Shown here in pieces: positions 18,171-44,918 of a stretch of 53,375 bases of DNA; position 1 is the stretch's first letter; each line of letters begins with the position of its first letter. The position numbers were made by a program, and so were the translations under genes. The notes beneath the pieces are model-generated. The model made no database searches, was not told the origin of the DNA, and saw nothing but the letters and a program-made list of their open reading frames with translations. The DNA is taken from positions 1 to 53,375 of the IMG/VR virus record IMGVR_UViG_3300032290_000786, one strand, 5' to 3'. The stretch comes from a virus. Lineage: Duplodnaviria; Caudoviricetes.

Positions 18171-18452
18171 ATGAACAAAGCAATGATTGAGTCCTACCTC
18201 CGTAACCTTCTAGGTCAAGCCGTTGGTGCAATCACCATCGTGGCTCAGACCAGTGGTGTCGGTAGCCCTGCAGACTTCGGACAGAGCGAGTGGCTACTTG
18301 TAGCCAATTCCCTTTGGGCATCCCTAGTTCCCGTAGCCCTTCGCTACATCAACAAGAAAGACCCTGCCTTCGGCAAGGTTGCTGAAGTTGCTGCTGCCGA
18401 AGTAACAAAGAAGATTTCTAAAAAGGCTGCTGCTAGCAAGAGCAAAAAGTAA
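18171..18452 (+). CDS. putative holin-like membrane protein
   Basis: GAGGAG RBS; SYLR..., VPVALRYIN.KDPAFG; basic C-terminus. Confidence 0.5.
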   Translation: MNKAMIESYLRNLLGQAVGAITIVAQTSGVGSPADFGQSEWLLVANSLWASLVPVALRYINKKDPAFGKVAEVAAAEVTKKISKKAAASKSKK

Positions 18453-18471
18453 AAACAACTCAACAACGTTG

Positions 18472-18524
18472 GTAGTCCCTCTGCAGTAAAAAATATATAA
18501 AATAATTATCTGCAGGGGGCTACC
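18472..18524. other. long GC-stem hairpin with AT-rich loop
   Basis: GTAGTCCCTCTGCAG ... CTGCAGGGGGCTAC, upstream of the TerS-like gene. Confidence 0.6.
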
Positions 18525-18550
18525 TCCCTTATCAAAGGTAACTCTCCGAA

Positions 18551-19462
18551 ATGAACAGCGACTCCCTCCCCTTGAATGGCGAGGATGAAGATTCTGATTT
18601 AGCACTTCCCGATATTTCTACGCCACTCGATTGGCGTCCTGACTTGACAAACCTCGGCATCATAGAGCATGATAAGGGCGTCTGTGACGACTCTTACGAA
18701 AACCGTTCCATCTTGCGTCGGGCAAATCTCCAATGGGATTCTGTCTACGACCAGATGGGAAAGCCAACGGGTCTCATCATCGCCCGTTCCGAGGACGCAA
18801 CTAAACAACGGCGTCTCATCTCAGTATCTGAGAAACGCCCTTTGCTCCAGGACCCAACTAAAAACAATTCAGATTACTTAACGGGCCTCGACCTCATCGT
18901 AGATGACGCGGCTTGCAAAATTACACCGCCTTGGGTTATAGGCGCGACACGAACATTCCTTAAAGAACAAGAAGACGGTGGCCCGAAATCTCAACGGCGA
19001 GCGCCGGCGGCTCTACCACATCGTTGTAGATTTGTCAGGTCAGACAGTATGCGTTGTTTACTCTGGTCATCGGGACGGCTTAAGGATGACGGCCTCTGCC
19101 GATTCCATCTCAAGCACAACCGCACACCAGGCGCGGATATCGAACGGGCACGTCAGAAGATTGTTCAGAGTGCACCGTATGCAGTAGATGTTATGGAAGA
19201 GTTAATGGAGTCTGCTCAGTCAGAACCCGTGAGACTCAAAGCGGCAACGGAGATACTTGACCGTGCTGGCGTGCGAGGTGGAATTGAACTTGATGTCGGC
19301 GTGGATGTAACAATGCGTAGTCCAGCGGACATCGTGATGGAAAGATTGCAACGGCTTGCCCAAGGAGCAATCCATGCTGCGTCACTGCTGCCTGATGCAC
19401 AAGTTGTAGATGCAGAACCAGTAATTGAAGATTCAACTAACGGCGAGGATGACCAGGCGTGA
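18551..19462 (+). CDS. terminase small subunit-like protein
   Basis: RC...RC...LCRFH module followed by A...MEELME...VRLKAATEILDRAG. Confidence 0.5.
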   Translation: MNSDSLPLNGEDEDSDLALPDISTPLDWRPDLTNLGIIEHDKGVCDDSYENRSILRRANLQWDSVYDQMGKPTGLIIARSEDATKQRRLISVSEKRPLLQDPTKNNSDYLTGLDLIVDDAACKITPPWVIGATRTFLKEQEDGGPKSQRRAPAALPHRCRFVRSDSMRCLLWSSGRLKDDGLCRFHLKHNRTPGADIERARQKIVQSAPYAVDVMEELMESAQSEPVRLKAATEILDRAGVRGGIELDVGVDVTMRSPADIVMERLQRLAQGAIHAASLLPDAQVVDAEPVIEDSTNGEDDQA

Positions 19463-19635
19463 GTAATGAAAACTTATTGATGTTGGCGGAGCGGCTAGCG
19501 GCTAGACTCCAGGAAGACATCACACTAGCAACAACTCGTCAAGAGCACATAAGGGTAACGGCCCGCGCTAATGAAGCGGTGGAAATTGTTAATACATTAA
19601 AGACGGCGAGCGCTAATACGGTATCTAATAACTAG
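19459..19635 (+). CDS. small hypothetical protein
   Basis: GTGA overlap with the TerS-like gene; GAGGA RBS. Confidence 0.5.
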   Translation: MSNENLLMLAERLAARLQEDITLATTRQEHIRVTARANEAVEIVNTLKTASANTVSNN

Positions 19636-19649
19636 ACGGTGTAGAACAC

Positions 19650-19678
19650 AGTCTAGTTAATAGATACTAGTTTGTCAA
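19650..19678 (-). promoter_or_regulatory. SigA-type promoter facing the TerS-like operon (antisense)
   Basis: TTGACA-N17-TAGACT on the minus strand. Confidence 0.55.
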
Positions 19679-19728
19679 ATCGGCAAGCGGCGTGGGAGAA
19701 TAGCAAAAAGTAAAAACGGAGGACGGTA

Positions 19729-19863
19729 ATGGAAACGGTATTAAAAGATTGCTTCTGGTGCGGCCAGTCATACTCGATGGAAGTAACGGCGTGCCCTAGT
19801 TGTGCTGTGAAGACGGATGCGATGAAGAAAGTTACCCAGCCAGATAACGGCATGGGAAAGTAA
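19729..19863 (+). CDS. small Zn-ribbon protein
   Basis: GGAGG RBS; CFWC...CPSC. Confidence 0.55.
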   Translation: METVLKDCFWCGQSYSMEVTACPSCAVKTDAMKKVTQPDNGMGK

Positions 19864-20739
19864 GTTGTTTGTAGTCGTGGAACCAGGTAGCAGCGGCCAG
19901 GTAGTTTAACGGTCATATAATGGTAGAGTTCGTACAGGGTTAGTTCTAACCGTATACAAGGGAAGCGGCATGGGGAATAAGCGGATGGTTAAAGAAGTAG
20001 TCAGATTCATAACGGTGGTAACGCTGATGCTCATAGCGGCAAGCCAGTTTGCGCTTTTCCTTAACCGCTAGTAATGTGTGGTCTACATACTTACCAGGCA
20101 GGAGTTAACGTAGTTAATCTTCGTAGGGAGTTTTATTTGATTTCCTCCCTTGCTGACTATACTCACGGCTAAAAAATGCATAACGATACTGCTACGAAGA
20201 ACGGTCACAATCGGTTGCAACATGGGCCCGCGAAGAGCCTCCTTTCTCAACTGAGCCGTATCTGCTCCTCCTGGTTCGCTTTTTAATTTAAGTCCGCAGC
20301 AAGCGGCCCGCCAGGTAAACCATTTAAGTTGTTTGTGGTTAGCGGCTCGCTCCATTGCCTCCAGATACTCCTCCGCCATAACCGCCTCCTCCTCCACCCG
20401 CATAGCAAAAAGTAAAAATTCAAAGAGCGGCCCGCCGCTGTCCCCCATTAATAAGTTGTTGGGATGTGGGCGGACCGGACGGCACGGGCAGCAAGGTCCT
20501 TAAGTTGTTGACGGATTGCTACCAGGTAAGGCTGCACACTGAACGAAGATAACGGCGTGCCGATTTGACAGCGGCTTGACAATGGGACTAGACTAGGTTT
20601 TTCAAACAGGGTTTGAAAAACTAAAACCCGCTTACGGTGAGAACAGAATAACTTTTTTAGATGACGGCCTGGTAAAGCGGCCCGCTGCGTATAGCGGCCT
20701 GGAGTTGACACGAGATTTAATAACGGTTACGATGCTGCC

Positions 20740-20928
20740 ATGTTAACAATCCTGTATGTATTAAATGAGATTCGTAGAGAAGTAGCCAACGGTGCTCAAG
20801 AGTTGGAACAGTCCAAGAGAGAAACAGAAATGATAGTCAGCGGTTGGGACAGGATGCTTTGGGCTATTGCCAAACGGCGAGGAACTGAAGAAGCGCTGAA
20901 AAACCATTACTTGACAAGAGAGTATTAA
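20740..20928 (+). CDS. hypothetical protein (leaderless)
   Basis: ATG 6 nt after the -10 of promoter 20705. Confidence 0.55.
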   Translation: MLTILYVLNEIRREVANGAQELEQSKRETEMIVSGWDRMLWAIAKRRGTEEALKNHYLTREY

Positions 20929-20961
20929 TTCTGTATAATGCATTCTTGAAAGGGAGGACTT

Positions 20962-21150
20962 ATGTCTAAAGACATTCCAATAGTGCACGTTACGTTTTTA
21001 CCTCAATGCGATTTCTGCGGAGAGAAGGCAATGTATGACGCGGCAACTAATCTCGGACCCTGGGCCAATCTATGTTCAAATTGTTTTGACATCTATGGGC
21101 TTGGTCTAGGACTAGGTAAAGGTCAGCATCTAGTTCAACTTGACAACTAA
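20962..21150 (+). CDS. small Zn-finger protein
   Basis: CDFC...YDAAT..GPWANLC..CF...GLGLGKGQ; strong RBS. Confidence 0.75.
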   Translation: MSKDIPIVHVTFLPQCDFCGEKAMYDAATNLGPWANLCSNCFDIYGLGLGLGKGQHLVQLDN

Positions 21151-21173
21151 TAAATAGTCTGTCATACTAGGTT

Positions 21174-21250
21174 TGTATCTGGGGCGAATTCCTTACTGGA
21201 TGACGAAAAGGGTTGAGGTCCTAGGCCAAAAATCCCGTTCCCCAGATACA
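21174..21250 (+). ncRNA. structured leader / small RNA starting at predicted TSS
   Basis: 11-bp perfect stem TGTATCTGGGG/CCCCAGATACA enclosing 55 nt, just after promoter 21140. Confidence 0.45.
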
Positions 21251-21279
21251 TTACAAAACAACTACAGAAAGGGTGTCTT

Positions 21280-21462
21280 GTGCAAGAAGAAAAGATTTAT
21301 GATTTTGTAATAAAACTTGCTGGCAGAGTTTCTGCCAAGAACGAAGCAGAAGCAAACAAAAAAATAAATGCACACCTAGATGACCTAGGGGCAATAGATT
21401 CAGCGAAGCACGACCTACATTGGCCTGATGCTTCTTGGGAAATGGAGTATGAACTAAAGTGA
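21280..21462 (+). CDS. hypothetical protein
   Basis: AGAAAGGG RBS, GTG start. Confidence 0.65.
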   Translation: MQEEKIYDFVIKLAGRVSAKNEAEANKKINAHLDDLGAIDSAKHDLHWPDASWEMEYELK

Positions 21463-21755
21463 GTAACGAAACATTAGAAGTAGAAGAGTTAGAAGAAGAT
21501 AGCCCATTCATTACTGCTGGCGCACTTGCGGAGTATGTCTCGCAAGAATTTGAAGAAGATGAAATTGTTAGTTACAACGTCTATTCAAAGTCCGATGTTG
21601 AGTCTGACCTTGATGTTGAACTTACAGACGAACAATGGCTAAGGTTTTTACACCTTTGGGAAAACGATGATGTTCTCAATGAGACTCGTGCCGCGGTTTG
21701 GATGGAGACAGTAGATACCATTCGTCAAGAATTTGGTATTGAGGAAAAAGAATGA
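21459..21755 (+). CDS. acidic hypothetical protein
   Basis: Overlapping operon. Confidence 0.7.
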   Translation: MSNETLEVEELEEDSPFITAGALAEYVSQEFEEDEIVSYNVYSKSDVESDLDVELTDEQWLRFLHLWENDDVLNETRAAVWMETVDTIRQEFGIEEKE

Positions 21756-21943
21756 CACGCACTATAAAAAGTAAAATTGAATTTGAGTTTGATGTTGAGT
21801 TGGCAAACGAAGGCTTAGACACGCCAATGACAGATGACGAACTCATAGAGTATGCAACACGAACATTTGCGGAAGATGTTTATTCAATGTCTTTGCATAA
21901 CGAATTGCAAGGCGCAATTCGGACAATCATAGTAGAAGGGTAA
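21752..21943 (+). CDS. hypothetical protein
   Basis: ATGA overlap. Confidence 0.65.
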   Translation: MTRTIKSKIEFEFDVELANEGLDTPMTDDELIEYATRTFAEDVYSMSLHNELQGAIRTIIVEG

Positions 21944-21947
21944 GGCG

Positions 21948-22355
21948 ATGGGTCAGTATCACGTTTTAGTAAATTACGACAAGAAAGAAACTGTTGTTCC
22001 TCACGCACTCGGGCTCGGCCTGAAGCAATGGGAACACTTAGGGTTTGAAGGCGGCACGCTTGCCGATGCGCTTTACATCCTAACAATGACTTCACCTGCT
22101 CGTGGTGGTGGAGACTTACCTGAGACTGCGGTCTCGGGCCGATGGGCTGGTGACCGATGCTTTGTATACGGTGACTACACCCAAGATTCAGATTTACCCG
22201 ACATCCCAAATGCTGGCAGTCTGCCTATTGAAGGCGAGGGCTGGACAGACATTAGCGAACTAGTTGCCACAGAAATGGGCAAGGTGTTCGGATTCAAGAT
22301 GACGGGTGATGGGTGGAAGCGGCGTGAGTCGCTAACACCTCAGACGCAAGTCTGA
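21948..22355 (+). CDS. conserved phage hypothetical protein
   Basis: MGQYH..VN.DKKE, GLK.WE, GRWAGDR...GDY. Confidence 0.75.
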   Translation: MGQYHVLVNYDKKETVVPHALGLGLKQWEHLGFEGGTLADALYILTMTSPARGGGDLPETAVSGRWAGDRCFVYGDYTQDSDLPDIPNAGSLPIEGEGWTDISELVATEMGKVFGFKMTGDGWKRRESLTPQTQV

Positions 22356-22367
22356 CCCTTTCCCAGT

Positions 22368-22401
22368 AAAGACGGCGTGCCCTTAGGGGTGCGCCGTTTT
22401 T
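22368..22401 (+). terminator. intrinsic terminator
   Basis: GACGGCGTGCCC-TTA-GGGGTGCGCCGTTTTT. Confidence 0.8.
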
Positions 22402-22610
22402 CATTTGTCCACTAAACGGATGACATCCAAATACCTGCACTAGAACGGCAAGTTGTTTACAGATTCACCTGGCGGCCAGGCATTTAGCAAAAAGTAAAAA
22501 TGCACTCCTCCAGGCACGGCGAGGATGGGAAGTTGTTTGTAGTTGGCAGACCTGAAGACCGAATGCCAACACGGCTTGACATCTTAGAAGGCAAGCCCTA
22601 TACTGCGATT

Positions 22611-22760
22611 ATGAAAAAGAAAAATCCACTTGACGGCTTGCTTCGCTTGCGAGGTCGCTTTGTGCTGAACCAAAAAGCACAGGTGTTTGCTGACAAGCGG
22701 AGTAAGCGAAATAAATCTCGCGCCGAACAAAGACGGCGTGCCTTAGAGGAACAGGAGTAA
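22611..22760 (+). CDS. small basic protein (leaderless)
   Basis: ATG 6 nt after TATACT of promoter 22576. Confidence 0.6.
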   Translation: MKKKNPLDGLLRLRGRFVLNQKAQVFADKRSKRNKSRAEQRRRALEEQE

Positions 22761-22768
22761 AAAGTAAA

Positions 22769-23035
22769 ATGACAACGGATACAACACAGGAGCGCTGGAA
22801 CTTGGGCTACTACTCACAACTTGAGGGTGCAACAATTCTGAGGTTCAAGGGAACTGACCCTGATGATTTTGGAAGCCGTGGGTTTCCAATGTTTGTGGCA
22901 CGACTTGCAAATGGAGAACTTGTTGAACTTGTTCTCTCCCAAGACGAAGAAGGTAATGGTGGAGGATTTATGTTCGGACTTCCTGATTACACGCTTCCTG
23001 AGTTTCGCACCACTAAGCACTTGACAAAAAAATAA
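22769..23035 (+). CDS. hypothetical protein
   Basis: LSQDEEGNGGGF motif. Confidence 0.7.
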   Translation: MTTDTTQERWNLGYYSQLEGATILRFKGTDPDDFGSRGFPMFVARLANGELVELVLSQDEEGNGGGFMFGLPDYTLPEFRTTKHLTKK

Positions 23036-23077: not shown

Positions 23078-23233
23078 GTGAATACAGTTTATTTGAAGAT
23101 GGAACTCTCAGATGAGGTTCTAGGTGTTGAAGGGTTTATGGAAGGCTTCCTTCATACTGTTCGTGAATTACAGATAGATGGCGTTGTCACACAATACGAG
23201 TGGGACACAGAACCTTTTGGGGAGGGAAACTAA
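23078..23233 (+). CDS. small hypothetical protein
   Basis: GGAAAGGAG RBS, GTG start, TAATG coupling. Confidence 0.55.
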   Translation: MNTVYLKMELSDEVLGVEGFMEGFLHTVRELQIDGVVTQYEWDTEPFGEGN

Positions 23234-23904
23234 TGCCAAACTGGGTATATAACAATCTCTCAATAGAGGGAACAGAAGAAGCCATTGCGCGAGTAAAGGC
23301 TCAACTCAACAAGCCAATCGTAAAACAATATGGCGAAGACAAAGAAGCAACTACTTATTCAAATCCAATCTTTTCGTTTTGGAACATTATTGCTCCACCT
23401 GCCGAAAAGTTAGATGAATACTTTGGCACTCACGGATTTGATGGTGGTAAGGCTACTGGTGATACTGAATACAACTGGTATAACTTCAACAACCATAAAT
23501 GGGGAACTAAGTGGGATGTCGCAGTATCAGATGGCGAAAGTTATTCTGCTACAGAAATAACTAGCGAGTCTGCTACACACATTTCTTATCGCTTTGATAC
23601 TGCGTGGTCGCCACCACTTCCAGTTATTGAAGAACTATCTGTTCAATACCCTGAGTTAGAAATAACTTTGGAGTATGAAGAGGAACAAGGCTGGGGTGGA
23701 GAAATCCTATGGACAGAAGAAGGCTCTAGTATTATTCGTGAATACGACATACCTGATAGTCACGCTGACTTTGATGAGCGAGACAATCTTGATGGTTGCC
23801 TTTGCGCCACAGAAGAGGAGCAAGACGATTGGTATAAAGACTGCCCTAGAGAAGAAGTTCTTGAACTACAGGCAGAACAACAACTACAAGTAGTAGGGGA
23901 ATAG
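23233..23904 (+). CDS. DUF1281/YubB ferredoxin-like domain protein
   Basis: MPNW..N.L, WY.....WGTKWD, FDTAWSPP, YP.L...L.YEE. Confidence 0.8.
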   Translation: MPNWVYNNLSIEGTEEAIARVKAQLNKPIVKQYGEDKEATTYSNPIFSFWNIIAPPAEKLDEYFGTHGFDGGKATGDTEYNWYNFNNHKWGTKWDVAVSDGESYSATEITSESATHISYRFDTAWSPPLPVIEELSVQYPELEITLEYEEEQGWGGEILWTEEGSSIIREYDIPDSHADFDERDNLDGCLCATEEEQDDWYKDCPREEVLELQAEQQLQVVGE

Positions 23905-23916
23905 GAAAAAGTAAAA

Positions 23917-24177
23917 ATGAGCAAAGACCTAAGTAACGCAACATACTTTGCAATAGATGGAAACTATGGAGATGCTGATGGCATTGTCATTGTTGATACT
24001 TCAGGCTGGTCTGAAGAAGACTGGACTGCGATTGACGAAGTGGGGGACGCTGATAGAGCCAACCTTGCCTACGCACTTGCGAAGTCTGACGACCTTGCGA
24101 GCGCGAGAGGTGCGCTAGAAATCCACGACACAGAGGCAGAACCAATTCTAGGTCGTGATTTGACAAAAAAGGAATAA
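23917..24177 (+). CDS. hypothetical protein
   Basis: YFA.DGNYGDA motif. Confidence 0.7.
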   Translation: MSKDLSNATYFAIDGNYGDADGIVIVDTSGWSEEDWTAIDEVGDADRANLAYALAKSDDLASARGALEIHDTEAEPILGRDLTKKE

Positions 24178-35595: not shown

Positions 35596-35610
35596 AAATT
35601 GAATAAGGGG

Positions 35611-35638: not shown

Positions 35639-35667
35639 ACAAAAACGAGAATAGGAAAAAGTAAAAA

Positions 35668-35781
35668 ATGATGAACTTGAATGATTATCTAAATGGAAAA
35701 GTTGTTCCTGTATGCGATGAATGTAAAAAAGAACTTAGCCCAGACGAACTAGGCTACGGACACGATTGCGAGGTAGCGTAA
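35668..35781 (+). CDS. small Cys/His protein
   Basis: CDEC...GHDCE; TAATG coupling. Confidence 0.5.
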   Translation: MMNLNDYLNGKVVPVCDECKKELSPDELGYGHDCEVA

Positions 35782-36134
35782 TGATTGATTTTGATTTAGT
35801 AGAAGAAAGAGTGAGCGAGGCTAAGGCTATTGCTTGGGATACTTGCCACAAGATTTATTTGCTAATGGACGATAAGCAGGTAGAACTAATGCGCGAGTAT
35901 GGATACGACCCACTTATTACTAATGCGGAAGCAACACCTGAAAAGATGTTAGAACTTCTAAAAGAGTGGTTCGAGGGTTCTTGCGGTCTTAGATTTATTG
36001 ATGCGGTGAGCACCCACCCAACAGACCCGAACAAGGGGTTTGAAACTCTCATAGGGCAGGGCGACTATGACCTTGAAGAAGAAGACACGCCACAAGGCGC
36101 ACAGATTATAGATTTGACATACAAGCCTATCTAA
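35781..36134 (+). CDS. hypothetical protein
   Basis: IAWDTCHKIYLLMD, WFEGSCGLRFI. Confidence 0.75.
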   Translation: MIDFDLVEERVSEAKAIAWDTCHKIYLLMDDKQVELMREYGYDPLITNAEATPEKMLELLKEWFEGSCGLRFIDAVSTHPTDPNKGFETLIGQGDYDLEEEDTPQGAQIIDLTYKPI

Positions 36135-36171
36135 TGTTACTATTGGTCTTAGAAAGAAAGGGGAATACCAA

Positions 36172-36354
36172 ATGGGTATCGCAATAGGCACAACAATTAC
36201 AGTAACTTTTGATGCACGCCAGATAGCACAACTTGATTGCGTTCTTCAAGAGTTTGAAATGATGAACTACAAAGAAGAAACAGAACACCAGAAGATAAAT
36301 GTTGAGAGAGTCAATAACATCTTCAAGGCACTACACGAGGCAGGATACAGATAA
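36172..36354 (+). CDS. hypothetical protein
   Basis: Promoter 36114 plus RBS. Confidence 0.6.
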   Translation: MGIAIGTTITVTFDARQIAQLDCVLQEFEMMNYKEETEHQKINVERVNNIFKALHEAGYR

Positions 36355-36482
36355 TGCGTAAGGTCTTGGAAGATGGGCTAACAGTATGCACGCCTTGCGG
36401 TGATGGCATAGATGGTGCGCTCATAGATTTTGAGGTAGAACGAAACGAAGCAGAACCAGACTGCGACTTTTGCGGAAAGTGA
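36354..36482 (+). CDS. small Zn-finger protein
   Basis: CTPC...CDFC; TAATG coupling. Confidence 0.5.
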   Translation: MRKVLEDGLTVCTPCGDGIDGALIDFEVERNEAEPDCDFCGK

Positions 36483-36545
36483 TTTGACTTTCATATTTAT
36501 GTATAGTATGATTTGATTATCAAGGAAAGCGAGGGGGGTGAACAA

Positions 36546-36770
36546 ATGATAACTTTCGGAGATTATGTAAATTGGGTAGAGCCTAATGGCAACTACACTA
36601 ACTACTGTATTCAATGCGGACGCAAGACAGGTAAGAACGCTTATCTAGTAAATGTGTCCACAAGCGGTGCGGTTCTACACCCAGCAAGCGAGGCAGACTC
36701 ACAAGGGTTCTGGCAGATAGGCAGAGAGTGTGCAAAGGAATTTGACCAAGGCGCACTAGTCAAGAACTAA
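36546..36770 (+). CDS. Zn-finger protein
   Basis: CIQCGRK...IGRECAK. Confidence 0.7.
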   Translation: MITFGDYVNWVEPNGNYTNYCIQCGRKTGKNAYLVNVSTSGAVLHPASEADSQGFWQIGRECAKEFDQGALVKN

Positions 36771-36787
36771 ATAAAATTGAAAAAGAC

Positions 36788-36817
36788 AGCCCCAGAGAAA
36801 TCTGGGGTTTTCTTTTT
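36788..36817 (+). terminator. intrinsic terminator
   Basis: GCCCCAGA-GAAA-TCTGGGGTTTTCTTTTT. Confidence 0.85.
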
Positions 36818-36926
36818 GAGGCTGTAGCAAAAAGTAAAAACTCACCAAGATGGCTAGTGAGGTTCTGAAATTGTTTATAGTTGAAAACACCTAGCCACTA
36901 AATCAGAAAATCTCACAGAAAAAAGA

Positions 36927-36942
36927 TGTGAGTTACTTCACA
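36927..36942. promoter_or_regulatory. CRP/GlxR-type site
   Basis: Perfect TGTGA-GTTACT-TCACA in intergenic DNA. Confidence 0.55.
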
Positions 36943-37085
36943 GTAAAAATGTCCGTTTTGTCTTTACACTTTTTTCGCTAAGGGTTTTTACCTTTTCAAC
37001 TACAAACAACTTATGGACTTCAAGGGTCAAAACTTGACAAGTCTTCATCTAATGTCCTATACTTATAGAAACGAAAGGAAAACTA

Positions 37086-37307
37086 ATGAAGTATCTACTA
37101 CACCTACACCCCGCCGAGAGGCGTGCCTATAAGATTATCGCCTATGTAATAGGTGCGGTTCTACTATTTGTTCTTTTGCTTGACGCCTCTGCGCTAGGGC
37201 TTATCGTGTTCTTCGCTATGGGTTGGTATGCCAAGAGCAAGTATGACCTCAAACAAAAGAAGATAGCCAAGAAGAAAAAGAAGATAGAAGCACTTGACAA
37301 GCAATAA
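37086..37307 (+). CDS. membrane protein
   Basis: Hydrophobic core, basic tail; promoter 37034. Confidence 0.65.
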   Translation: MKYLLHLHPAERRAYKIIAYVIGAVLLFVLLLDASALGLIVFFAMGWYAKSKYDLKQKKIAKKKKKIEALDKQ

Positions 37308-37353
37308 TCAGTATGCTACACTTATAGCATAAGGACAACGAAAGGGGAAAGAA

Positions 37354-37536
37354 ATGAAGGGATTACCTGATAGTGCGGTTGTTGGAACATACAAGCGTGC
37401 TAAGCACTATGCTCGCAAAAATCGTGGTGGTTCTCTAAAACAATGTAAGCGCGAGGAAGAAATTGTTTTCAACGCATTATTCAACCTCACAGTATTCGGA
37501 TTGAGCAAGATTGTGAGTTTGACAAAGAAGAACTAA
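37354..37536 (+). CDS. hypothetical basic protein
   Basis: Promoter 37294 plus RBS. Confidence 0.6.
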   Translation: MKGLPDSAVVGTYKRAKHYARKNRGGSLKQCKREEEIVFNALFNLTVFGLSKIVSLTKKN

Positions 37537-37575
37537 TTTGCTAGACTTACACCAATGACGAAAGGAAAAAGTAAA

Positions 37576-38163
37576 ATGGATAAAGATTTAGATGTAGAGG
37601 GTCTTAGCAGAGACGAACAGTTAGAGAAGTTTCAGGCTAACCTAAAAGAACTTGCACGACCAACTTATGACTTTGAGAGTTACGGACTAGAAGATTTGTG
37701 GTCTGAAGTCCTTCCCGGCCTATGGCAGGGTGGAACAGACGACTTTGATACTATCTACGAAGCAACTCCATACACTCCAACAGAAGAAACACCTATTGGG
37801 ATTACCAAGAAGGACTTTGATGTCGTAGTACCAGCCTATGCGTGGGCTAAGCCTGTTGATTGGGGCGTCAAGGAAGTCCGATTTGGTTTCTATGACGCGG
37901 ATATGAGCGACATAAATATGGGTGCTGTCTATCGTATTGTCAATGACATACACGCCGATTGGAAGCGTGGAGATAAGGTTCTAGTGCGCTGTCAGGCTGG
38001 CTGGAATCGTTCAGGACTAATCACAGCACTAATCCTTATGAAAGAGGGTTATACGGCTGATGACGCGATTTCGTTGATTAGAAAGAAGCGAAGTCCTCAC
38101 GCATTATGTAACAAGAAGTTTGAGAAGTTTCTTCGGGAACTTCCACCCTTCCCAAAGAAGTAA
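37576..38163 (+). CDS. dual-specificity / protein-tyrosine phosphatase family protein
   Basis: Catalytic CX5R loop VLVRCQAGWNRSG; AISLIRKKRS..ALCN..F. Confidence 0.9.
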   Translation: MDKDLDVEGLSRDEQLEKFQANLKELARPTYDFESYGLEDLWSEVLPGLWQGGTDDFDTIYEATPYTPTEETPIGITKKDFDVVVPAYAWAKPVDWGVKEVRFGFYDADMSDINMGAVYRIVNDIHADWKRGDKVLVRCQAGWNRSGLITALILMKEGYTADDAISLIRKKRSPHALCNKKFEKFLRELPPFPKK

Positions 38164-38322
38164 GAGCAAGGGCTGGCATAGGAAAAAGTAAAAACCTATC
38201 CAGCCCTTTGCTGTTTCTCAACGACACGCCGAAAGTCAGGAAGGTTTGACAAAAGGTCAGGAAGGCTGTAATCTTAGGGTATTAGTAAAAGTTACTAATA
38301 AGCAAGAAAGGGAAATGACGAA

Positions 38323-38505
38323 ATGATAATGCTAATGGATAAGAAGTTTATTGTTCGCAGACGAATTGCTTTTGCTGTTGCTGTTGTTTCTGCGGTTGCT
38401 TTACTAGCACTCGCAACTATTGGTTTAGACCATCTCAACTGGGTTGGCGATGGTTACTGCTTCAAGTCAAGTCTTGAGTGTTACTTTCCTGAAGGGGGGA
38501 AGTAA
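38323..38505 (+). CDS. small membrane protein
   Basis: RRR followed by TM; W.G.GYC.....C. Confidence 0.65.
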   Translation: MIMLMDKKFIVRRRIAFAVAVVSAVALLALATIGLDHLNWVGDGYCFKSSLECYFPEGGK

Positions 38506-38729
38506 TGCGAATAACTAAAAAAGGAAATGCTTTTATCAAAGACAGAGAAAAACTAAGCACACCTCGTGCGGAATTTTTACTCAAGTTCGCTTCTATGAGC
38601 GATGAACAGTTTGAGAAATGGTCTGAACTGGAAACAAGTGCTGAAGCAAGAGCATTTATGTCAGCAATACCAATGCCTCAAATGAAAACAAATGAAGTAT
38701 TTATCAAACTAGAAAAACAAGAGAGTTAG
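38505..38729 (+). CDS. hypothetical protein
   Basis: TAATG coupling. Confidence 0.6.
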   Translation: MRITKKGNAFIKDREKLSTPRAEFLLKFASMSDEQFEKWSELETSAEARAFMSAIPMPQMKTNEVFIKLEKQES

Positions 38730-38741
38730 GATAAAGTAAAA

Positions 38742-38909
38742 ATGGTTCTAGATACAGGCACACTTATTGGAATTACGATTGCGCTCGCAAGTTCTTGCAT
38801 AGTTATGGTTATCTCTATACGCTCTCATCGGGAGTTGTTACAAGAGAACAAAGCCTTGAAGGCACTACTTCGTGCCGAAAGAGAAATCAAGAGAGGGGGA
38901 AATAACTAA
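38742..38909 (+). CDS. small TM plus coiled-coil protein
   Basis: Read manually; coupled to the next ORF. Confidence 0.55.
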   Translation: MVLDTGTLIGITIALASSCIVMVISIRSHRELLQENKALKALLRAEREIKRGGNN

Positions 38910-39076: not shown

Positions 39077-39543
39077 TGACAAAGCCAACTTGGGACAAAC
39101 TAGTTGAGGCAACACCTATGCACAATGGGAAACTTGTCGAACTAGAGCCTAACCAAACTTTCTGGCACAACAAGTTCTATGTAGTTGTGCGGACAGTCCT
39201 TGAACCTGAACTAGGGGAAAAGAGTGGTCTTCACCTGTCTATCCGACACCAAGAACGAAAAGCAATTCGGGATTGGCGACACTTTCAGCGCATCAAAAAC
39301 GAACTCGCTGGGGCAGAACGAGAAGCCGTAGAAATCTTCCCGCCTGAGTCCCAACTTGTTGATACTGCTAACCAGTATCACCTCTGGGTTCTTCCTGAAG
39401 GAACTACAAGTTTCTTTACTTGGAAGGACGGACGCCACGTTACGGACAATGCACAAGACCCCGAGACTGCTCAATGGTTGCGGGACAAAGGTATTGACCC
39501 ACAATTCACACAGAACTCTGTTCAGCGTCCGCAGGAGGAGTAA
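39076..39543 (+). CDS. conserved phage protein
   Basis: HLSI, DWRHFQRIKNEL.G...EAVEIFPPESQLVDTANQYHLW. Confidence 0.75.
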   Translation: MTKPTWDKLVEATPMHNGKLVELEPNQTFWHNKFYVVVRTVLEPELGEKSGLHLSIRHQERKAIRDWRHFQRIKNELAGAEREAVEIFPPESQLVDTANQYHLWVLPEGTTSFFTWKDGRHVTDNAQDPETAQWLRDKGIDPQFTQNSVQRPQEE

Positions 39544-39746
39544 TGGCAAAAAGTAAAAACATCGCAGAATCTGCGGCACAACTCTACGAAGGTGGGTTGT
39601 CTGTAGATGGTGTCGCTTCAGAACTAAAAGTCTCTTACAGATGTGCCCGTAGGGCTATCAAAAGTAGAGGCGTAATTTTACGAGACCCTTCAGCGCGGTT
39701 GAAGGGGAGAACTTCCCCTAAGAAGAAAAGGACAACAAATGAATAA
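39543..39746 (+). CDS. small HTH DNA-binding protein
   Basis: LYEGGLSVDGVASELKVSY......KSRGVILR. Confidence 0.75.
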   Translation: MAKSKNIAESAAQLYEGGLSVDGVASELKVSYRCARRAIKSRGVILRDPSARLKGRTSPKKKRTTNE

Positions 39747-40357: not shown

Positions 40358-40966
40358 ATGAATAGACCTACTAGCGGAGCCATCGAGAAAATCATTAGCG
40401 TTGCTGTAGCGGCTATATTTTTATCAGCATTTTCTGCTGCAACGCAGAACTCAAGTGCTGAAGAGATTGCCAAGATAAAACAACAAGAAGTAAAAACTCA
40501 GGCGGATATAGAAGCCGAGATTGAAAAGCAAAGACAGAAGATTGCCAAACTCCAACTGCAGAAGTTCTCAGTCCAGAAGACTGCCTTCACAGATGTCGAG
40601 TTAGCACAGATGCTTGCCGCTGTTGGGTTTGAAGGAAAAGCCCTCAAGACTGCGTGGGCTGTCGTAAAGAAGGAAAGTAATGGTCGTCCTCTTGCCTTCA
40701 ATGGCAACACACGGACTGGCGACTCTTCCTATGGCATATTCCAAATCAATATGATTGGCGGGCTAGGAGTTACACGCCGAGACAAGTATGATTTGGACAG
40801 CAACAAGGATTTATTTGACGCCGTTATCAACGCACAGATTGCTTACCATATGAGCAATGGTGGCGAGGATTGGACTTCGTGGAAAATCTCAGCCCCTTAC
40901 ACAAACTCAGATGAGATAAGATTTAGACAGTGGTATGAAAAGTTCCCAGAAGGAGTAGTTGGATGA
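40358..40966 (+). CDS. exported lysozyme-like lytic transglycosylase
   Basis: Signal/TM, coiled coil, AWAVVKKES, SYGIFQIN, N..IAY.MS.GG.DW..W. Confidence 0.8.
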   Translation: MNRPTSGAIEKIISVAVAAIFLSAFSAATQNSSAEEIAKIKQQEVKTQADIEAEIEKQRQKIAKLQLQKFSVQKTAFTDVELAQMLAAVGFEGKALKTAWAVVKKESNGRPLAFNGNTRTGDSSYGIFQINMIGGLGVTRRDKYDLDSNKDLFDAVINAQIAYHMSNGGEDWTSWKISAPYTNSDEIRFRQWYEKFPEGVVG

Positions 40967-41421
40967 GCCAAGAAGATTTAGATTACACAAACTATTATCA
41001 AGACGAACCTGCTGTTGAAGAGGTTGCGGTTGAAGAAGCAGAAGTTGTTGTTGTTGCAGAACCAGAAGTTGCTGCAGAGCCAATAGCAAAAAGTAAAAAG
41101 TCTTCAGCCGCCGCTGCTGTAGAACCAGAAGTTGTTTATTCTCCACCAGCATCTTCAGCACTGGAGTTGGGCGAGGTTCGTCTTTCAAGTCTTGTGTTTG
41201 AGGGAAATAGCGTGAACTCTCGGTCAGTTGCGTTAGTGCAGGAACGCCTAGTTGAACTAAGTTTCTATGATGCGGGAAGCGATAATCGCGGTTGGTTGGG
41301 TGCTGGAACTAAGAAAGCGCTCGCTGATTTCGCAGGTTTGAGCGTAGAAGAAGTTGTTGTAGATAGTGAAGAACTCATCAAGCGTCTCTTCGCAGGAACA
41401 CAAGTATCTGTAAGTAAGTAA
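40963..41421 (+). CDS. acidic protein with possible PG-binding-like C-terminal domain
   Basis: V.LVQERLVEL.F.....D..GWLGAGTKKAL..F. Confidence 0.55.
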   Translation: MSQEDLDYTNYYQDEPAVEEVAVEEAEVVVVAEPEVAAEPIAKSKKSSAAAAVEPEVVYSPPASSALELGEVRLSSLVFEGNSVNSRSVALVQERLVELSFYDAGSDNRGWLGAGTKKALADFAGLSVEEVVVDSEELIKRLFAGTQVSVSK

Positions 41422-41517
41422 CTTTCAACAAATCAGCGCTCTGGCTGTCAAATAAAATTGACTAGCCAGGGCGCTTTTTACTTTTTGCGCCCCGTGTAGA
41501 CTCGGAAGGACGACACA

Positions 41518-42149: not shown

Positions 42150-42803
42150 TTACCAACACCTATTTCGGTTCTTCTCCATAATTGGTTGATAAGTCTTTGT
42201 CTCGCCGTGAACTGTTGCCTTGTATCCATAGCGAACAAGTCGGAAAGCAATAGCACTCGGAGTAACACCTAACAACTTTGCTAAGCGGTATTGAGTGCAA
42301 CCTTGCTTTATTGCCTCGTTGAGTAGGTAAGAGTATTCCTCTGCCTCTTCACGATACTTTGGTGAGTGCGACCTAACAAGTGCTGCTAATGGTTGTAGTT
42401 CCTTCATACGAGCCAACATTTCAGGATTAGGTTCCGTGTATACGGGTTTGACCTTTACCTTCATTTGTTTGCGTTCAGGTAGTGGAACTGCAAGTGTTGC
42501 AGGTGGGTGTTCAGTCTGTGTCCAGTTACGGGAGATAAGACGAATACTTTCAGTAGACATCTTCGCTGACCTCGCAATTGCTGTTGCTGTCCAACCTGCA
42601 CTCTCTAGAGCCTTGATGTAGTTATTGCGGTCTGACCTGCTAATAATGCTAGCGAAAGCATTAGTAACATTTTCAGGCAATACCTGTCCATACTTTTGCA
42701 CTACGCCTTGTTGAATAATCACAGGGCGTTTTCCTTGAGTCTCTCGCATAGCGTGAGCCTTTTGTAGGATTTCAGGGTTTGTCCCAAAATTTACCTTTGA
42801 CAT
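42150..42803 (-). CDS. twin HTH DNA-binding protein (paralog of 3651-4226)
   Basis: Shared LQPLA..VRSHSP.YR.EAEEYS and RLAK.LGVT...FRL.RYGY. Confidence 0.8.
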   Translation of the reverse strand: MSKVNFGTNPEILQKAHAMRETQGKRPVIIQQGVVQKYGQVLPENVTNAFASIISRSDRNNYIKALESAGWTATAIARSAKMSTESIRLISRNWTQTEHPPATLAVPLPERKQMKVKVKPVYTEPNPEMLARMKELQPLAALVRSHSPKYREEAEEYSYLLNEAIKQGCTQYRLAKLLGVTPSAIAFRLVRYGYKATVHGETKTYQPIMEKNRNRCW

Positions 42804-42952
42804 ATATTTCCTTTCGTTTGGTTATACCCTAAGTATATTAGTTAGTATTTATTTTGTCAAATCATTTGCTAAGTTACCAACCAGTAACTAAGTTGTTTGG
42901 AAGTGGGACAACCGGCCGCTGCCCATTTTTACTTTTTGTTATTGCTTCTTCA

Positions 42953-42987
42953 GAAAATAACCCCCGCGTTGTGCGGGGGCTATCTTC
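42953..42987 (-). terminator. intrinsic terminator
   Basis: AAAATAACCCCCGC-GTTGT-GCGGGGGCTATCTT. Confidence 0.75.
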
Positions 42988-42996: not shown

Positions 42997-43332
42997 TTAG
43001 AGTTTGAGTAGTGTGCGGAGTTCGTTGGCTACTTTGTCGTCAAGACCTAGTGTCTCGCCTTCGTCCCCTGTCCCACCTGTGAAGATTACATCTCCAACAA
43101 TTACATCTGTAAAGCCGAAGTGCTTTTCCCATAGTAGGGTTGCGATTGCGTTGATAGGGAGTCCGTTTAGTTTTCCCTCTTCATTTACCCACATCGTTAG
43201 ATTGTCTGATAAATCTACCGCTTCAATGTAACCGCCTACTGCCTTTTGTAATGTAGACAGTTGAGACTCTCCCTCGTTGAGGTCTATCTCTTCTGCCTTG
43301 TTACCTTCTGCCGTTAGTGTTATTGCGAGCAA
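42997..43332 (-). CDS. DUF3846 domain protein
   Basis: LQKAVGGYIEAV, VNEEGKL.GLP.N..AT, D.IVGDV.F.G. Confidence 0.85.
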   Translation of the reverse strand: MLAITLTAEGNKAEEIDLNEGESQLSTLQKAVGGYIEAVDLSDNLTMWVNEEGKLNGLPINAIATLLWEKHFGFTDVIVGDVIFTGGTGDEGETLGLDDKVANELRTLLKL

Positions 43333-43408: not shown

Positions 43409-43445
43409 AAGAAAAACCCCCGCAGGTTATGCGGGGGCTTCTCTC
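43409..43445 (-). terminator. intrinsic terminator
   Basis: AAAAACCCCCGCA-GGTTA-TGCGGGGGCTT. Confidence 0.8.
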
Positions 43446-43452
43446 TAAGCCT

Positions 43453-43710
43453 TTAGGCTGATGTAGTTGAGAAGACTACTGCCTCTTCCTCTACTACCTC
43501 TTCAGTAGTTGTTGGGTGATTGAGGACGAGGTATAGAAGTTCTTCTGCACCCATCTCTTCGTGAGGTTCCCCACGAGTCTCTTTCATTACTACAACCTTC
43601 TCAATAGGTGCGGTAGCACCTAGTAGGAGTTCTCTTACTTGAGCCTTTGTGTCAATGATGTAGTAGTAAGTAGTTCCCTTGATTGTTACTGCTGTTCCAT
43701 ATGCGGTCAT
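43453..43710 (-). CDS. hypothetical protein
   Basis: Promoter, RBS and terminator cassette. Confidence 0.65.
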   Translation of the reverse strand: MTAYGTAVTIKGTTYYYIIDTKAQVRELLLGATAPIEKVVVMKETRGEPHEEMGAEELLYLVLNHPTTTEEVVEEEAVVFSTTSA

Positions 43711-43824
43711 TCGTTTTCCCCTTTTCTTTATATTGAAGCCCTTTGCTTCAATAAGATAAACATATACTACTTCTATACGCTTTGCAAGTCTAACTAGGTA
43801 TATGACCAGTCACACTTTAGTCAT

Positions 43825-43853
43825 AAGAAAACCCCCCTATGCGGGGGGCTTTC
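43825..43853 (-). terminator. intrinsic terminator
   Basis: AAGAAAACCCCCC-TATGC-GGGGGGCTTTC. Confidence 0.75.
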
Positions 43854-43861
43854 CTAGAGCC

Positions 43862-44011
43862 TTACCAAAACTTAGACCATACTCTGATTGGTTTCTCTGC
43901 TACTTGTAGAGCCTTTACTATTACAAGTGCAACACTCTCTAGAGTATCTTCAACCTTCTCTAAGATTTCCTTTTCTTCCTTTGAGAAGTTTGCGGTTACC
44001 TTGATTTCCAT
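43862..44011 (-). CDS. small hypothetical protein
   Basis: Read manually; promoter 44078, AAAGGGG RBS. Confidence 0.55.
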   Translation of the reverse strand: MEIKVTANFSKEEKEILEKVEDTLESVALVIVKALQVAEKPIRVWSKFW

Positions 44012-44118
44012 TTTCTTTCCCCTTTGTTAGGTTTTTACTTTTTCCTAACACCTAAATACTATCAAGTCTTTGTTATATGTCAAGTGTTTACTAATATATC
44101 CTCTGTGATTTAGGCAAC

Positions 44119-44149
44119 AAGAAAGCCCCCCTTGCGGAGGGCTTCCTTT
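44119..44149 (-). terminator. intrinsic terminator
   Basis: AAGAAAGCCCCCC-TTGC-GGAGGGCTTCCTT. Confidence 0.7.
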
Positions 44150-44150
44150 G

Positions 44151-44363
44151 TTACTTGCCGTTCTTTATATCTATTAGGTCTTGTATGTCTGCTTCCCAAG
44201 ACTGAACATCGTGTAGTTGTTCATCGCTTGCGGATAGTTCCCACTTCTCTACTTCTTGAGCGTATGTCTCTAGTTCTTCTAGCGACTTTGTTTCTGCTAA
44301 GTCCAGCCATTTGATGTATTCATCATCTGCTAGGTATTCAGCAAGTGTTGGAAGTTTTTGCAT
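44151..44363 (-). CDS. acidic hypothetical protein
   Basis: Promoter 44437, GAAAGGG RBS. Confidence 0.65.
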   Translation of the reverse strand: MQKLPTLAEYLADDEYIKWLDLAETKSLEELETYAQEVEKWELSASDEQLHDVQSWEADIQDLIDIKNGK

Positions 44364-44918
44364 TTGGTTCCCCTTCCTAGTGTCAATCACCCCCTGTGAT
44401 TTCCACTAACTAAATACTATTACACTAGGATATATATGTCAAGTGTTTCCTCTAGGATTTATCTCACATATATGTAAGAGGTTACTCAGGAGTAACTTAG
44501 CCAGACGCTCAGGGGGGTAGTAACTATCAACAACTACTTGACCCTTGACTAGTCAGACACTAGCCAGCCTAGAAAGAAAATAAAATCATAAGAGCAATAG
44601 CAAAAAGTAAACTTGAGTCGCCTTGACTCACCTTTGACAAGTAAAAGTTATTAGTTGTTAGTAATACTCTCCATCTTCCTTGAAAATAATCTGACTAGGC
44701 ATAAGACCTTTGTTTTTTCATATAAATCTAGAAAATTAAAAGTTGTTTTGATGTCATTTATTTTTTATCCGGAAACGATTTGGAAAAGCGCTCAATATAT
44801 GCAGAGCCTTCTCACAGGCCAAAACCAAAATACGGAAACCTTCATATATTCGTCTGCATCGTCCAAGTATCTTGGAACTGTCTCTGTACGCTTATAAAAA
44901 ATACTGTACAATAGTAGT

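Follow-up and report, generated by a model that had tools for sequence, protein, structure and literature searches.

A directional 16-base repeat in the small-gene island of a freshwater actinophage is most likely a gene-expression signal

What does a short, directional DNA repeat do among the small genes of a lake phage? The question is raised by IMG/VR record IMGVR_UViG_3300032290_000786, the entire 53,375 bp of which constitute the window analyzed here. Between ~18 and 45 kb the window holds an island of some 60 small genes, with plus-strand genes up to 41.8 kb and minus-strand genes at 41.9-44.4 kb. Within this island a sharply defined 16-base repeat, M1, occurs in about 25 copies that follow gene direction. 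The island also holds ~17 distinct terminator-like hairpins and all 13 near-consensus sigma-70-like promoters of the window, which lie at 20.9-42.9 kb (20911-42860), run with the genes and were scored as TTGACA and a TATACT-like hexamer 16-18 nt apart with at least 11 of 12 positions matching. Because these promoters and hairpins are gathered there, it is a reasonable inference that the island is early.

At up to two mismatches, AGSAAAAAGTAAAAA matched the window 27 times (17 exact, five with one mismatch and five with two), and 26 of these matches lie within 18441-44613. Across 100 dinucleotide-preserving shuffles the mean was 1.03 matches and the maximum 3, so that none of the 100 reached 27. 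The initial annotation had reported about 25 copies at 18.4-44.6 kb, none at 1-18.4 kb and a partial one at 48881, and these statements hold. The sole match in the left part (13108-13122, minus strand) is a two-mismatch match without the GT core, no better than chance, and we do not count it as a copy. It is one of four doubtful two-mismatch matches, with those at 28706, 40482 and 44599.

Base composition had been named as a possible explanation for such a repeat. On the plus strand of 18-45 kb we counted 21 matches at up to two mismatches and 15 exact AAAAAGTAAAAA 12-mers, whereas Markov simulations of order 2-4 trained on that same strand gave means of 0.36-0.89 matches and 0.01-0.07 exact 12-mers. 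Ten other A-rich 12-mers of like composition and the all-A 12-mer occurred 0-3 times each, and AAAAAGTAAA-type words are the commonest 10- and 12-mers of the window. Because the Markov models and the control 12-mers fall far below what is observed, A-richness is excluded, and together with the shuffles they reject chance.

To define the limits of M1, we aligned 198 distinct contexts, which were gathered by an exact 11-base core and thus do not sample variation within it. The conserved block is t-A-G-(C or G)-AAAAAGTAAAA-A, that is, t-AG-C/G-AAAAAGTAAAAA, and the A-run is preceded by C in 133 contexts and by G in 32. These 16 positions alone are conserved, with every flanking column below 0.2 bit, and none of the 198 contexts' columns up- or downstream reveals a -10 element. 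Because no flanking column is conserved, M1 is a self-contained 16-mer with neither a -35 nor a -10 partner. In cellular genomes TAGCAAAAAGTAAAAA was found once per contig in unrelated taxa among the matches listed (at least 120 matching stretches), and a literature search for the string AAAAAGTAAAAA gave, among the matches listed, papers that are unrelated to the motif as judged by title.

The same repeat, with the same confinement, recurs in relatives. Two IMG/VR contigs syntenic with window 11-28 kb at 65-87% DNA identity (G001 and G002) carry 8 and 13 copies, every one of them on the gene strand and, with the exception of one two-mismatch match, in the small-gene part. At least three copies are present in 30 of 80 loci around portal homologues (74-84% protein identity), nearly all of them upstream of the portal gene. 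In three long relatives M1 is confined to an island of 20-25 kb. The first, G003 (133 kb, rated 100% complete), has 16 matches with at most one mismatch, at 1.8-20.0 kb plus one at 132.5 kb; G004 (125 kb) has matches at 6.9-31.8 kb plus a one-mismatch match at 62.7 kb that breaks the GT core; and G005 (103 kb) has matches at 83.4-102.7 kb. Forward-to-reverse counts are 15:1, 3:18 and 1:14, respectively, which places 86-94% of copies on one strand. Thus, an asymmetric motif that follows gene direction and is confined to the small-gene island, as first described for the window, is also found in all three.

Does selection act on the bases themselves? Gene 40963-41421 carries an exact plus-strand copy (41085-41099), and in 20 related loci M1 also lies in a sense open reading frame (ORF) of similar size and layout, which we take to be the same gene. 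Of 10 distinct related sequences aligned by tblastn, 7 retain an intact GCAAAAAGTAAAAA between residues that differ (AEEKP.., VEELV.., PAAEE.., EPI..); the other three are a degenerate form, a sequence without M1 and a misaligned row. One sense frame through M1 is open, TAG and TAA close the other two, and the in-gene copies use the open frame. Because the in-gene copy is kept while the residues around it vary, these data support the earlier suggestion that the nucleotide sequence of M1 is under selection. Of the four copies that had been assigned to coding sequences, two do lie within one (41085 and an exact copy at 32065-32079, plus strand, in predicted coding sequence 31950-32294) and a third, with one mismatch (39545-39559, plus strand), occupies the first codons of ORF 39543-39746 (ATG GCA AAA AGT AAA AAC), whereas the fourth, at 21766, is merely a partial core match. 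The doubtful two-mismatch match 40482-40496 (plus strand) lies in coding sequence 40358-40966.

We next consider where M1 sits relative to genes, using 196 distinct copies from the window and its relatives and counting ORFs of at least 35 codons, a cut-off at which small genes may be missed. An ATG that opens such an ORF is abutted by 34 of the 196 copies. The first base of the ATG, GTG or TTG coincides with core base 12 in 24 copies, precedes it by one base in 7 and follows it by one in 5; starts between +2 and +11 number six in all, and the next group begins from +12. A further 36 copies have a start no more than 30 nt away, in most cases with a GGAG-like site of its own, which brings the copies within 30 nt of a start to 70/196. 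In 65/196 copies, M1 supplies the stop codon (TAG or the inner TAA) of the upstream ORF. Since it can supply a stop and abut a start, M1 is often the whole spacer between two genes. M1 is also placed behind terminators: 26/196 copies lie no more than 35 nt behind a terminator-like hairpin, against 1-3/196 in five sets of random places and 6/128 for sigma-70-like promoters. When the 61 predicted gene starts of the island were sorted by what precedes them, 7 had M1 only, 23 a sigma-70-like promoter only, 3 both and 28 neither; in the three with both, M1 begins 0-15 nt downstream of the second hexamer.

The window copies illustrate each of these arrangements. Five copies had been described as abutting an ATG (at 22769, 23917, 29732, 35668 and 37576), and all five do so, as does a sixth at 38742; all are on the plus strand. 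Copy 22756-22770 has two mismatches, and the gene start at 22769 has M1 in G001 and G002 as well. Copy 23903-23917, of the AGG form, is an entire gene junction, its TAG ending ORF 23233-23904 and its last A being the A of ATG 23917. The AGG-form copy 29718-29732 abuts ATG 29732, where the matching G002 gene has an AGC form that likewise abuts ATG. Copy 35653-35667, also AGG, begins 20 nt after terminator stem 35611-35632 and abuts ATG 35668. Copy 37563-37577 (one mismatch) abuts ATG 37576 and lies 15 nt after the second hexamer of sigma-70-like promoter 37519-37547, and copy 38728-38742 (one mismatch) is again an entire junction, in which the TAG stops ORF 38505-38729 and ATG 38742 follows.

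Other plus-strand copies stand a short distance from a start. With its TAA, the exact copy 18441-18455 ends ORF 18171-18452; the nearest ATG downstream is 18551, and the counterparts of this copy in G001 and G002 abut ATG. The exact copy 19702-19716 directly follows the second hexamer of a weak sigma-70-like site (19672-19701), with GGAGG and ATG 19729 coming 12 nt downstream. At 28255-28269 (exact), ATG 28283 comes after 13 nt that contain GGGAG. Copy 33012-33026 (exact) is a junction whose TAG stops ORF 32768-33013, and ATG 33041 comes after 14 nt that contain GAGGGAAG. Copy 30744-30758 (AGG form) begins 15 nt after terminator stem 30709-30728 and 14 nt ahead of ATG 30773, with no sigma-70-like site between the terminator and that ATG; the layout in G002 is identical. 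In four window copies (30744, 35653, 36826 and 42940), M1 begins 15-20 nt after a terminator stem. The exact copy 20404-20418 adjoins no start, and its counterpart is conserved in G002. A putative minus-strand ORF of 121 residues (20083-20448) starts 3 nt from the reverse complement of this copy, at a place where G002 has conserved bases. The remaining doubtful plus-strand matches are 28706-28720, in the spacer of sigma-70-like promoter 28701-28729, and 44599-44613, a pattern match that ends in AAACT.

Five copies are on the minus strand. Two of them, 42926-42940 and 44032-44046, share the direction of the minus-strand genes around them. The other three (33913-33927, 34894-34908 and 41475-41489) are reversed within the plus-strand gene block, as initially noted. 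Three copies that had been placed in hairpin loops are indeed there. Copy 38180-38194 (plus strand, AGG form) is in the loop of a hairpin that follows gene 37576-38163 and is itself followed by a T-rich tail; copy 41475-41489 has one mismatch; and copy 44032-44046 (AGG form) is part of a predicted 5' leader, where it starts 9 nt beyond the second hexamer of promoter 44056-44083 and ends 20 nt before minus-strand ATG 44011, with the same hairpin in L128 and L167. Among all 196 copies, 10 have a flanking stem of at least 5 bp against 2.4 ± 1.4 in shuffles, an excess that is limited to a few matching loci, two or three of which are common to the window and its relatives. L123, L126 and L162 have stem sequences unlike that of the window at the 41489 locus, yet the stems remain paired.

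A second repeated motif accompanies part of the M1 copies. M2, AAGTTGTTTGTAGTT, has 18 matches at up to three mismatches where 1.16 are expected. Motif search placed it on the plus strand at 19862-19876, 20326-20340 (near M1 copy 20404), 22530-22544 and 36868-36882, and on the minus strand at 33870-33884, 34935-34949, 36998-37012, 1144-1159 and 8226-8241, the last two being outside the island. Across relatives, M2 lies 40-44 nt downstream of the M1 core in at least 15 distinct modules, and it is the length of the spacer that is fixed, not its sequence. We folded 20 modules as RNA and found no consistent pairing, so a hairpin between M1 and M2 was rejected. In either orientation, the modules occupy the space from a terminator to the following sigma-70-like promoter; in the window they do so at 22.5, 33.9, 34.9, 36.8 and 42.9 kb. 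At the first, the exact copy 22486-22500 (plus strand) is followed by M2 and then by promoter 22576-22604. At the second, the exact reversed copy 33913-33927 is followed, on the minus strand, by M2 and by a two-way terminator (33811-33838); a strong terminator thus comes after M2 in the stretch from 33927 to 33811 on the minus strand, as it does in L157, L177 and L179. The exact reversed copy 34894-34908 stands with its M2 between terminator 34820-34842 and promoter 34980-35009. At 36826-36840 (exact, plus strand) the order is terminator 36788-36809, M1, M2, the reversed M2 and promoter 37034-37063. Copy 42926-42940 (one mismatch) begins 17 nt after minus-strand terminator 42958-42982 and is upstream of promoter 42832-42860 and a gene for a helix-turn-helix (HTH) protein considered below.

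Sister lineages without M1 carry another signal in the same places. The complete 135-kb relative G006 has 18 copies of GGGGTAAAAA, all at 59.7-77.9 kb, and zero copies of M1, while GGGGTAAAAA is absent from the M1-type records G000 and G003. Across 81 loci the two motifs are mutually exclusive except for one stray copy in L186. Moreover, they replace each other at matching junctions: window 33012 corresponds to L201 2447, where the sequence is GGGGTAAAAA, and window 38728 corresponds to L201 4351, where it is GGGGGTAAAAA followed by TG. GGGGTAAAAA contains a ribosome-binding core and lies at most 3 nt before a start, or overlaps it by one base, in 9/15 copies (L201 and L191). The L191 lineage has a longer motif, ATATATAGAAGAGGGGTAAAAAA, which extends upstream with ATATATAGAAGA, and this extension is longer than a ribosome-binding site needs. 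The lineage-specific swap therefore speaks for a reader evolving together with the phage or for a difference in hosts, and it makes the specific protein reader proposed at the outset plausible.

Taken together, strand bias, junction placement, selection at the nucleotide level and the lineage-specific swap indicate that M1 is a signal with a specific, evolving reader. Most likely, M1 is a cis-acting gene-expression signal that is read along transcription and marks the fronts of the island's expression units. The initial annotation had proposed a landing pad for a protein that coats, silences, protects or pulls in the first-injected DNA. We found no support for coating, protecting or pulling in; because the copies stand at gene fronts and just after terminators and have an ATG at a fixed offset, their placement points to gene expression rather than DNA handling.

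What kind of signal might this be? Our tentative preference is for a compact, factor-dependent promoter or restart site, a reading that we consider quite possible while still short of probable. M1 would be self-contained, with no -35 partner, and would be used by host RNA polymerase together with a phage factor that varies between lineages; we infer this promoter identity, its start point and its reader from the arrangement of the copies. Transcription would start at or near the last A of the motif, which would yield leaderless mRNAs where ATG abuts M1, short-leader mRNAs where a Shine-Dalgarno sequence comes within 12-24 nt, and small RNAs from the modules of M1, M2 and terminator. Leaderless mRNAs are common in Actinobacteria. 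A self-contained block of 16 conserved positions would fit a promoter, as would the placement of 26 copies behind terminators, where a new unit must start. Genes 30773 and 35668 have a terminator and M1 upstream with no sigma-70-like site between. The fixed ATG offset is consistent with transcripts that start at that A, or whose leader has room for a separate ribosome-binding site. The direction of M1, which runs with the genes and does so for the minus-strand copies in the 41.9-44.4 kb block too, would also fit, and so would the lineage specificity and the upstream extension of the sister motif beyond ribosome-binding needs. The units of M1, M2 and terminator, ~100 nt long (33927 to 33811 in the window; L157, L177, L179), look like small transcription units, and from the three loop copies a transcript starting in the loop would escape the hairpin.

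Several observations weigh against a promoter. M1 has no TANNNT-type -10 element, and 126/196 copies are more than 30 nt away from any start codon. Immediately ahead of the A-run, 18 of the 34 ATG-abutting copies have a G, compared with 14 of the 162 others (Fisher p = 2e-8); this G creates an AGGA-like ribosome-binding site, which implies that the mRNAs from those starts include M1. As fronts of genes, M1 and sigma-70-like sites are not significantly exclusive (3/26 vs 7/35, p = 0.49), so that idea was rejected. The territory of M1 coincides exactly with that of the host-type promoters, which is odd for a later promoter class; M1 is absent upstream of the nucleotide-metabolism and structural genes, and ~110 kb of the complete relative G003 are without it. 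Neither Pfam Sigma70_r2 nor T7-type RNA_pol had a match in five related genomes, although the RNA_pol search was also silent in every control genome and thus proves little. The conserved in-gene copies and the reversed intergenic copies need extra assumptions. Finally, the sole RNA library consists of short contigs, which cannot show the 5' ends of transcripts. We also considered whether M1 might be a part of the sigma-70-like promoters themselves, and rejected this because its placement is not constant: copies can be upstream of these promoters, facing either way, or downstream of them.

That library, a freshwater metatranscriptome, contains nine short contigs that are 90-100% identical to the island within 25-45 kb (34465-38146, 40566-40729 and 43114-43273), indicating that the phage or a close relative is present in the sample. 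The contigs carry no information on start or strand, may derive from DNA, and the parts they leave uncovered mean nothing. One of them spans terminator 35611-35632 and M1 copy 35653.

This contig is one of the points that favor a different reading, in which M1 is an RNA-level element of early mRNAs, akin to the start-associated sequences (SAS) of other actinophages, and a phage or host factor bound to it sets translation or stability. We hold this to be a possible but somewhat doubtful explanation. It accounts for the sense direction of M1, for the 70 copies near a start and the 34 abutting ATG, and for the enrichment of the AGG form at the latter; an upstream stop codon within the motif, as in 65/196 copies, is likewise described for SAS (PMC3203893). 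The sister motif, with its ribosome-binding core at starts, and the display of some copies in hairpin loops with co-varying stems would suit an RNA element as well, and copy 44046 is at a predicted transcript 5' end. However, most copies are away from starts, the commonest form, AGC, lacks a ribosome-binding core, and the copies directly behind terminators would be in RNA by read-through only. The reversed copies 33913 and 34894 have no visible promoter on their strand, the fixed spacing between M1 and M2 comes without pairing, and the contig that covers M1 may come from library DNA.

If M1 is read by a phage protein, which protein might it be? Our candidate, on thin evidence, is a 216-residue protein with two HTH regions encoded in the island at 42150-42803 (minus strand) under its own sigma-70-like promoter, with a weak HTH_3 match at residues 165-185. 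A paralogue outside the island (3651-4271, minus strand) is 45% identical, matches HTH_3 at E 9.9e-6 and Sigma70_r4 at E 1.2e-4, the latter below the Pfam cut-off; each paralogue has two HTH regions, and the HTH_3 matches are weak (E 1e-4 to 1e-5). The family has 329 relatives, with contigs of up to 154 kb among the matches listed. A structure model of the island protein (mean predicted local distance difference test score, pLDDT, 84) gave no Foldseek match at E 0.001 or better. With VIA-align, the second HTH resembled ParB/Spo0J (Z 6.8), KorB (Z 6.1) and a Cluster A2 mycobacteriophage repressor (chain 7tz1, Z 4.9, root-mean-square deviation 1.7 over 44 residues, a weak match), and the first resembled assorted HTH domains; all of these scores fall short of Z 8, the value under which the tool advises caution. 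With its two predicted HTH domains, a monomer would suit an asymmetric 16-bp site. The family is present in five of six M1-type records (G000, G003, G004, G008 and G010) but no member was detected in the sixth, G005 (78% complete; searched with a single protein), or in any of five records with other motifs (G006, DSL-LC01, G007, G009 and G011). This profile covers 11 records that are related to one another and partly incomplete.

Such a protein could act in more than one way. It might bind M1 as a stoperator-like operator or roadblock that blocks or tunes polymerase and shuts off early genes, which we regard as unlikely. The asymmetry and orientation bias of the site would suit a roadblock, copies inside genes would be tolerated, and confinement to the territory of host-type promoters would be natural for early-gene shut-off. 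Copies 19702, 37563 and 44046 lie at the predicted +1 to +25 of sigma-70-like promoters, the fixed 40-44 nt between M1 and M2 with no RNA pairing suggests DNA geometry, and both the record profile of the two-HTH family and the weak likeness of its second HTH to ParB, KorB and the Cluster A2 repressor point the same way. However, a position 15-20 nt after a terminator is of no use to a roadblock, the fixed ATG offset is left unexplained, and the only copy to overlap a sigma-70-like promoter is the doubtful 28706. The co-varying stems of the hairpin-loop copies point to a single-stranded form. Moreover, the protein profile comprises few, interrelated records, the same two-HTH family occurs in phages with other repeats, and the fold scores all fall short of the caution line.

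Alternatively, the reader could serve the promoter or restart site preferred above. In its fullest form, this would make M1 the site of a swappable, lineage-specific factor, perhaps the two-HTH protein, that redirects host RNA polymerase within a takeover island. Transcripts would start on the last A, giving leaderless mRNAs and small RNAs that bear M2, and lineages would have exchanged the specificities for M1, GGGGTAAAAA and ATATATAGAAGAGGGGTAAAAAA. Taken as a whole, we consider this scheme somewhat unlikely.

Two further explanations fare worse. M1 could load a lineage-specific antitermination or elongation factor onto polymerase, by way of the nascent RNA or the exposed non-template strand, as in systems of the lambda nut or RfaH ops type, and this factor would carry polymerase through the terminators of the island. 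In favor of this are the density of intrinsic terminators in the island, the orientation dependence of M1, its presence in leaders and between genes, its variation between lineages and the A-rich hairpin loops that a few copies form; however, a stem is present in 10/196 copies only, copies lie directly after rather than before terminators, ~1 site per kb is far above the known systems, and no NusG or N-like factor was identified, none having been searched for. We therefore consider antitermination quite improbable. In G001 (L121) an extra small gene at 10233-10555 has M1 on both sides, where the window (22756-22770) and G002 have a single M1 junction, and the end of the insert resembles window 23888-23920, which suggests cassette shuffling at M1. 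That M1 is mainly a recombination hot spot, a shared sequence at cassette borders that serves the shuffling of small genes and has no role in expression, is nevertheless the least probable explanation and very improbable, since 16 invariant bases across relatives with portals 76-84% identical imply selection for a reader, as do the fixed ATG offset and the strand bias, and shuffling can be a by-product.

The phage that carries M1 is a large tailed freshwater actinophage with a genome of ~130 kb, of which the window is a 53-kb piece: a fragment without a terminal repeat and with a large ORF running off its 3' end. The nearest named phage, Actinomycetia phage DSL-LC01, has a 129-kb genome that was assembled from lake water, and the portal proteins of the two are 75% identical; the portals of Microbacterium phages of 186-195 kb are ~60% identical to that of the window. 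The window also encodes a class II ribonucleotide reductase, a CobS-like ATPase and virion proteins. A megablast search of 18-43 kb against phage records gave no match.

More distant phages have repeats of their own. DSL-LC01 has no M1 (two one-mismatch core matches in 129 kb). In its locus 3176-14821 (L001) there are 13 cassettes, each with a terminator followed by an extended -10 promoter, TGTTATAAT, flanked by the inverted repeat GATTCTA / TAGAATC, and with a box, ACGACGAAAGGACA, 3-8 nt before the ATG; this looks like one promoter-plus-leader unit per small gene. Distant phages with the two-HTH family (L236 205-8234, L239, L260, L227, L237, L258 and L255) have 7-16 copies each of other repeats (GATAAAAAATGAATAC, CAGAAAAAATAAATAC, GAAAAAACGAATAC and AAAATGAAAAATG), and at most of these loci the A-rich strand of the repeat runs against the prevailing direction of the ORFs. 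The L236 copy we inspected lies just after a terminator, with a CCGTGT-like box ~15 nt away.

Some other features of the window deserve mention. Several of the island's sigma-70-like promoters have bases in common outside the hexamers (an example is TTGACAAAAGGTCAGGAAGG), and relatives have close variants of these. At 19640-22750, near promoters and gene ends, there are several occurrences of the word ACGGCGTG(CC), a count not compared with chance, and the stretch at 19.9-20.7 kb has few clear genes. ORF 15448-15954 contains tandem repeats of ~39 nt in at least four units, AAAGAAATACTAAAAAAATATAGCAGCAGTTCTAAAGGC-like, at 15523-15678. A tRNA-Gly with anticodon TCC lies at 7913-7985 on the minus strand (ARAGORN and Rfam); at the gathering threshold this tRNA (7915-7985) was the only Rfam match in the window, and no RNA family was found at M1. 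Downstream of the portal and a DUF5824 protein, a giant plus-strand ORF (49081-53373), which we considered as a possible injected polymerase or other enzyme, runs off the window end with 1431 residues in the window. The sole match of this part is RNase_T/DnaQ-like, at residues 1339-1428, and its search in Atlas gave no usable match. Its 3289-residue homologue in DSL-LC01 has no Pfam, PHROG or PDB sequence match of note.

The phages concerned are abundant in lakes and infect uncultured Actinobacteria, and to our knowledge nothing is known of their gene timing; M1 offers a direct handle on it, with a candidate reader. If M1 is a promoter for leaderless mRNAs, it would serve as a compact part for gene expression in Actinobacteria, and if a swappable factor reads it, it would represent a new transcription class in uncultured freshwater actinophages.

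How does M1 compare with known systems? The initial annotation likened it to the stoperators of mycobacteriophage L5, and part of that analogy stands. Like M1, the stoperators of Cluster A phages are short asymmetric sites in tens of copies with one orientation to transcription, and they lie in short intergenic gaps, overlap stop and start codons and are sometimes inside genes. In these temperate phages, stoperators occur throughout the genome, where the immunity repressor binds them, and they block elongation. The genome-wide spread is where the analogy fails: M1 is confined to an island of 20-26 kb and is absent from most of its complete 133-kb relative. M1 is also often behind terminators and has a fixed ATG offset, and the candidate reader is the two-HTH protein.

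Phage T4 has MotA-dependent middle promoters, late TATAAATA promoters and promoter-stem-loop cassettes (PeSL). These classes resemble M1 in placing a short motif before many small genes, among early promoters and stem-loops and with cassette shuffling. Unlike them, M1 has no -10 partner, can be abutted by ATG and is not found before replication or late genes. The lambda nut boxB and RfaH ops elements are leader signals with fewer sites. They share with M1 orientation dependence, early leaders and lineage-specific factors, and some M1 copies have purine-rich loops; however, M1 mostly lacks a stem, is far more numerous and is in many cases behind terminators.

M1 also resembles the SAS and ESAS of Cluster K mycobacteriophages and Cluster EF Microbacterium phages, which the accessible parts of two reports describe as asymmetric elements of 13-16 bp in 10-25 copies (PMC3203893, PMC7302621). 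As far as these parts go, SAS share with M1 the non-structural part of the genome, a single orientation and the rare reversed copy away from starts (PMC3203893, PMC7302621), and they lie next to ATG starts, where the upstream stop may fall inside them (PMC3203893). They differ in that virtually all SAS, with an AGGAG core, are 3-7 bp before a start (PMC3203893, PMC7302621), compared with 70/196 M1 copies within 30 nt. In these same portions the SAS core is a Shine-Dalgarno sequence, which the main AGC form of M1 lacks, and about half of SAS have an ESAS inverted repeat upstream, whereas the 36 positions upstream of M1 show no conservation, in a column-by-column comparison that could miss a poorly conserved, variably spaced repeat. 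Our literature search on SAS found no functional follow-up. The sister motif GGGGTAAAAA is closer to SAS than M1 is, and because this SAS-like motif occupies M1 junctions, M1 may illuminate the SAS of cultured actinophages. We place M1 among the conserved asymmetric regulatory repeats of actinophage non-structural regions.

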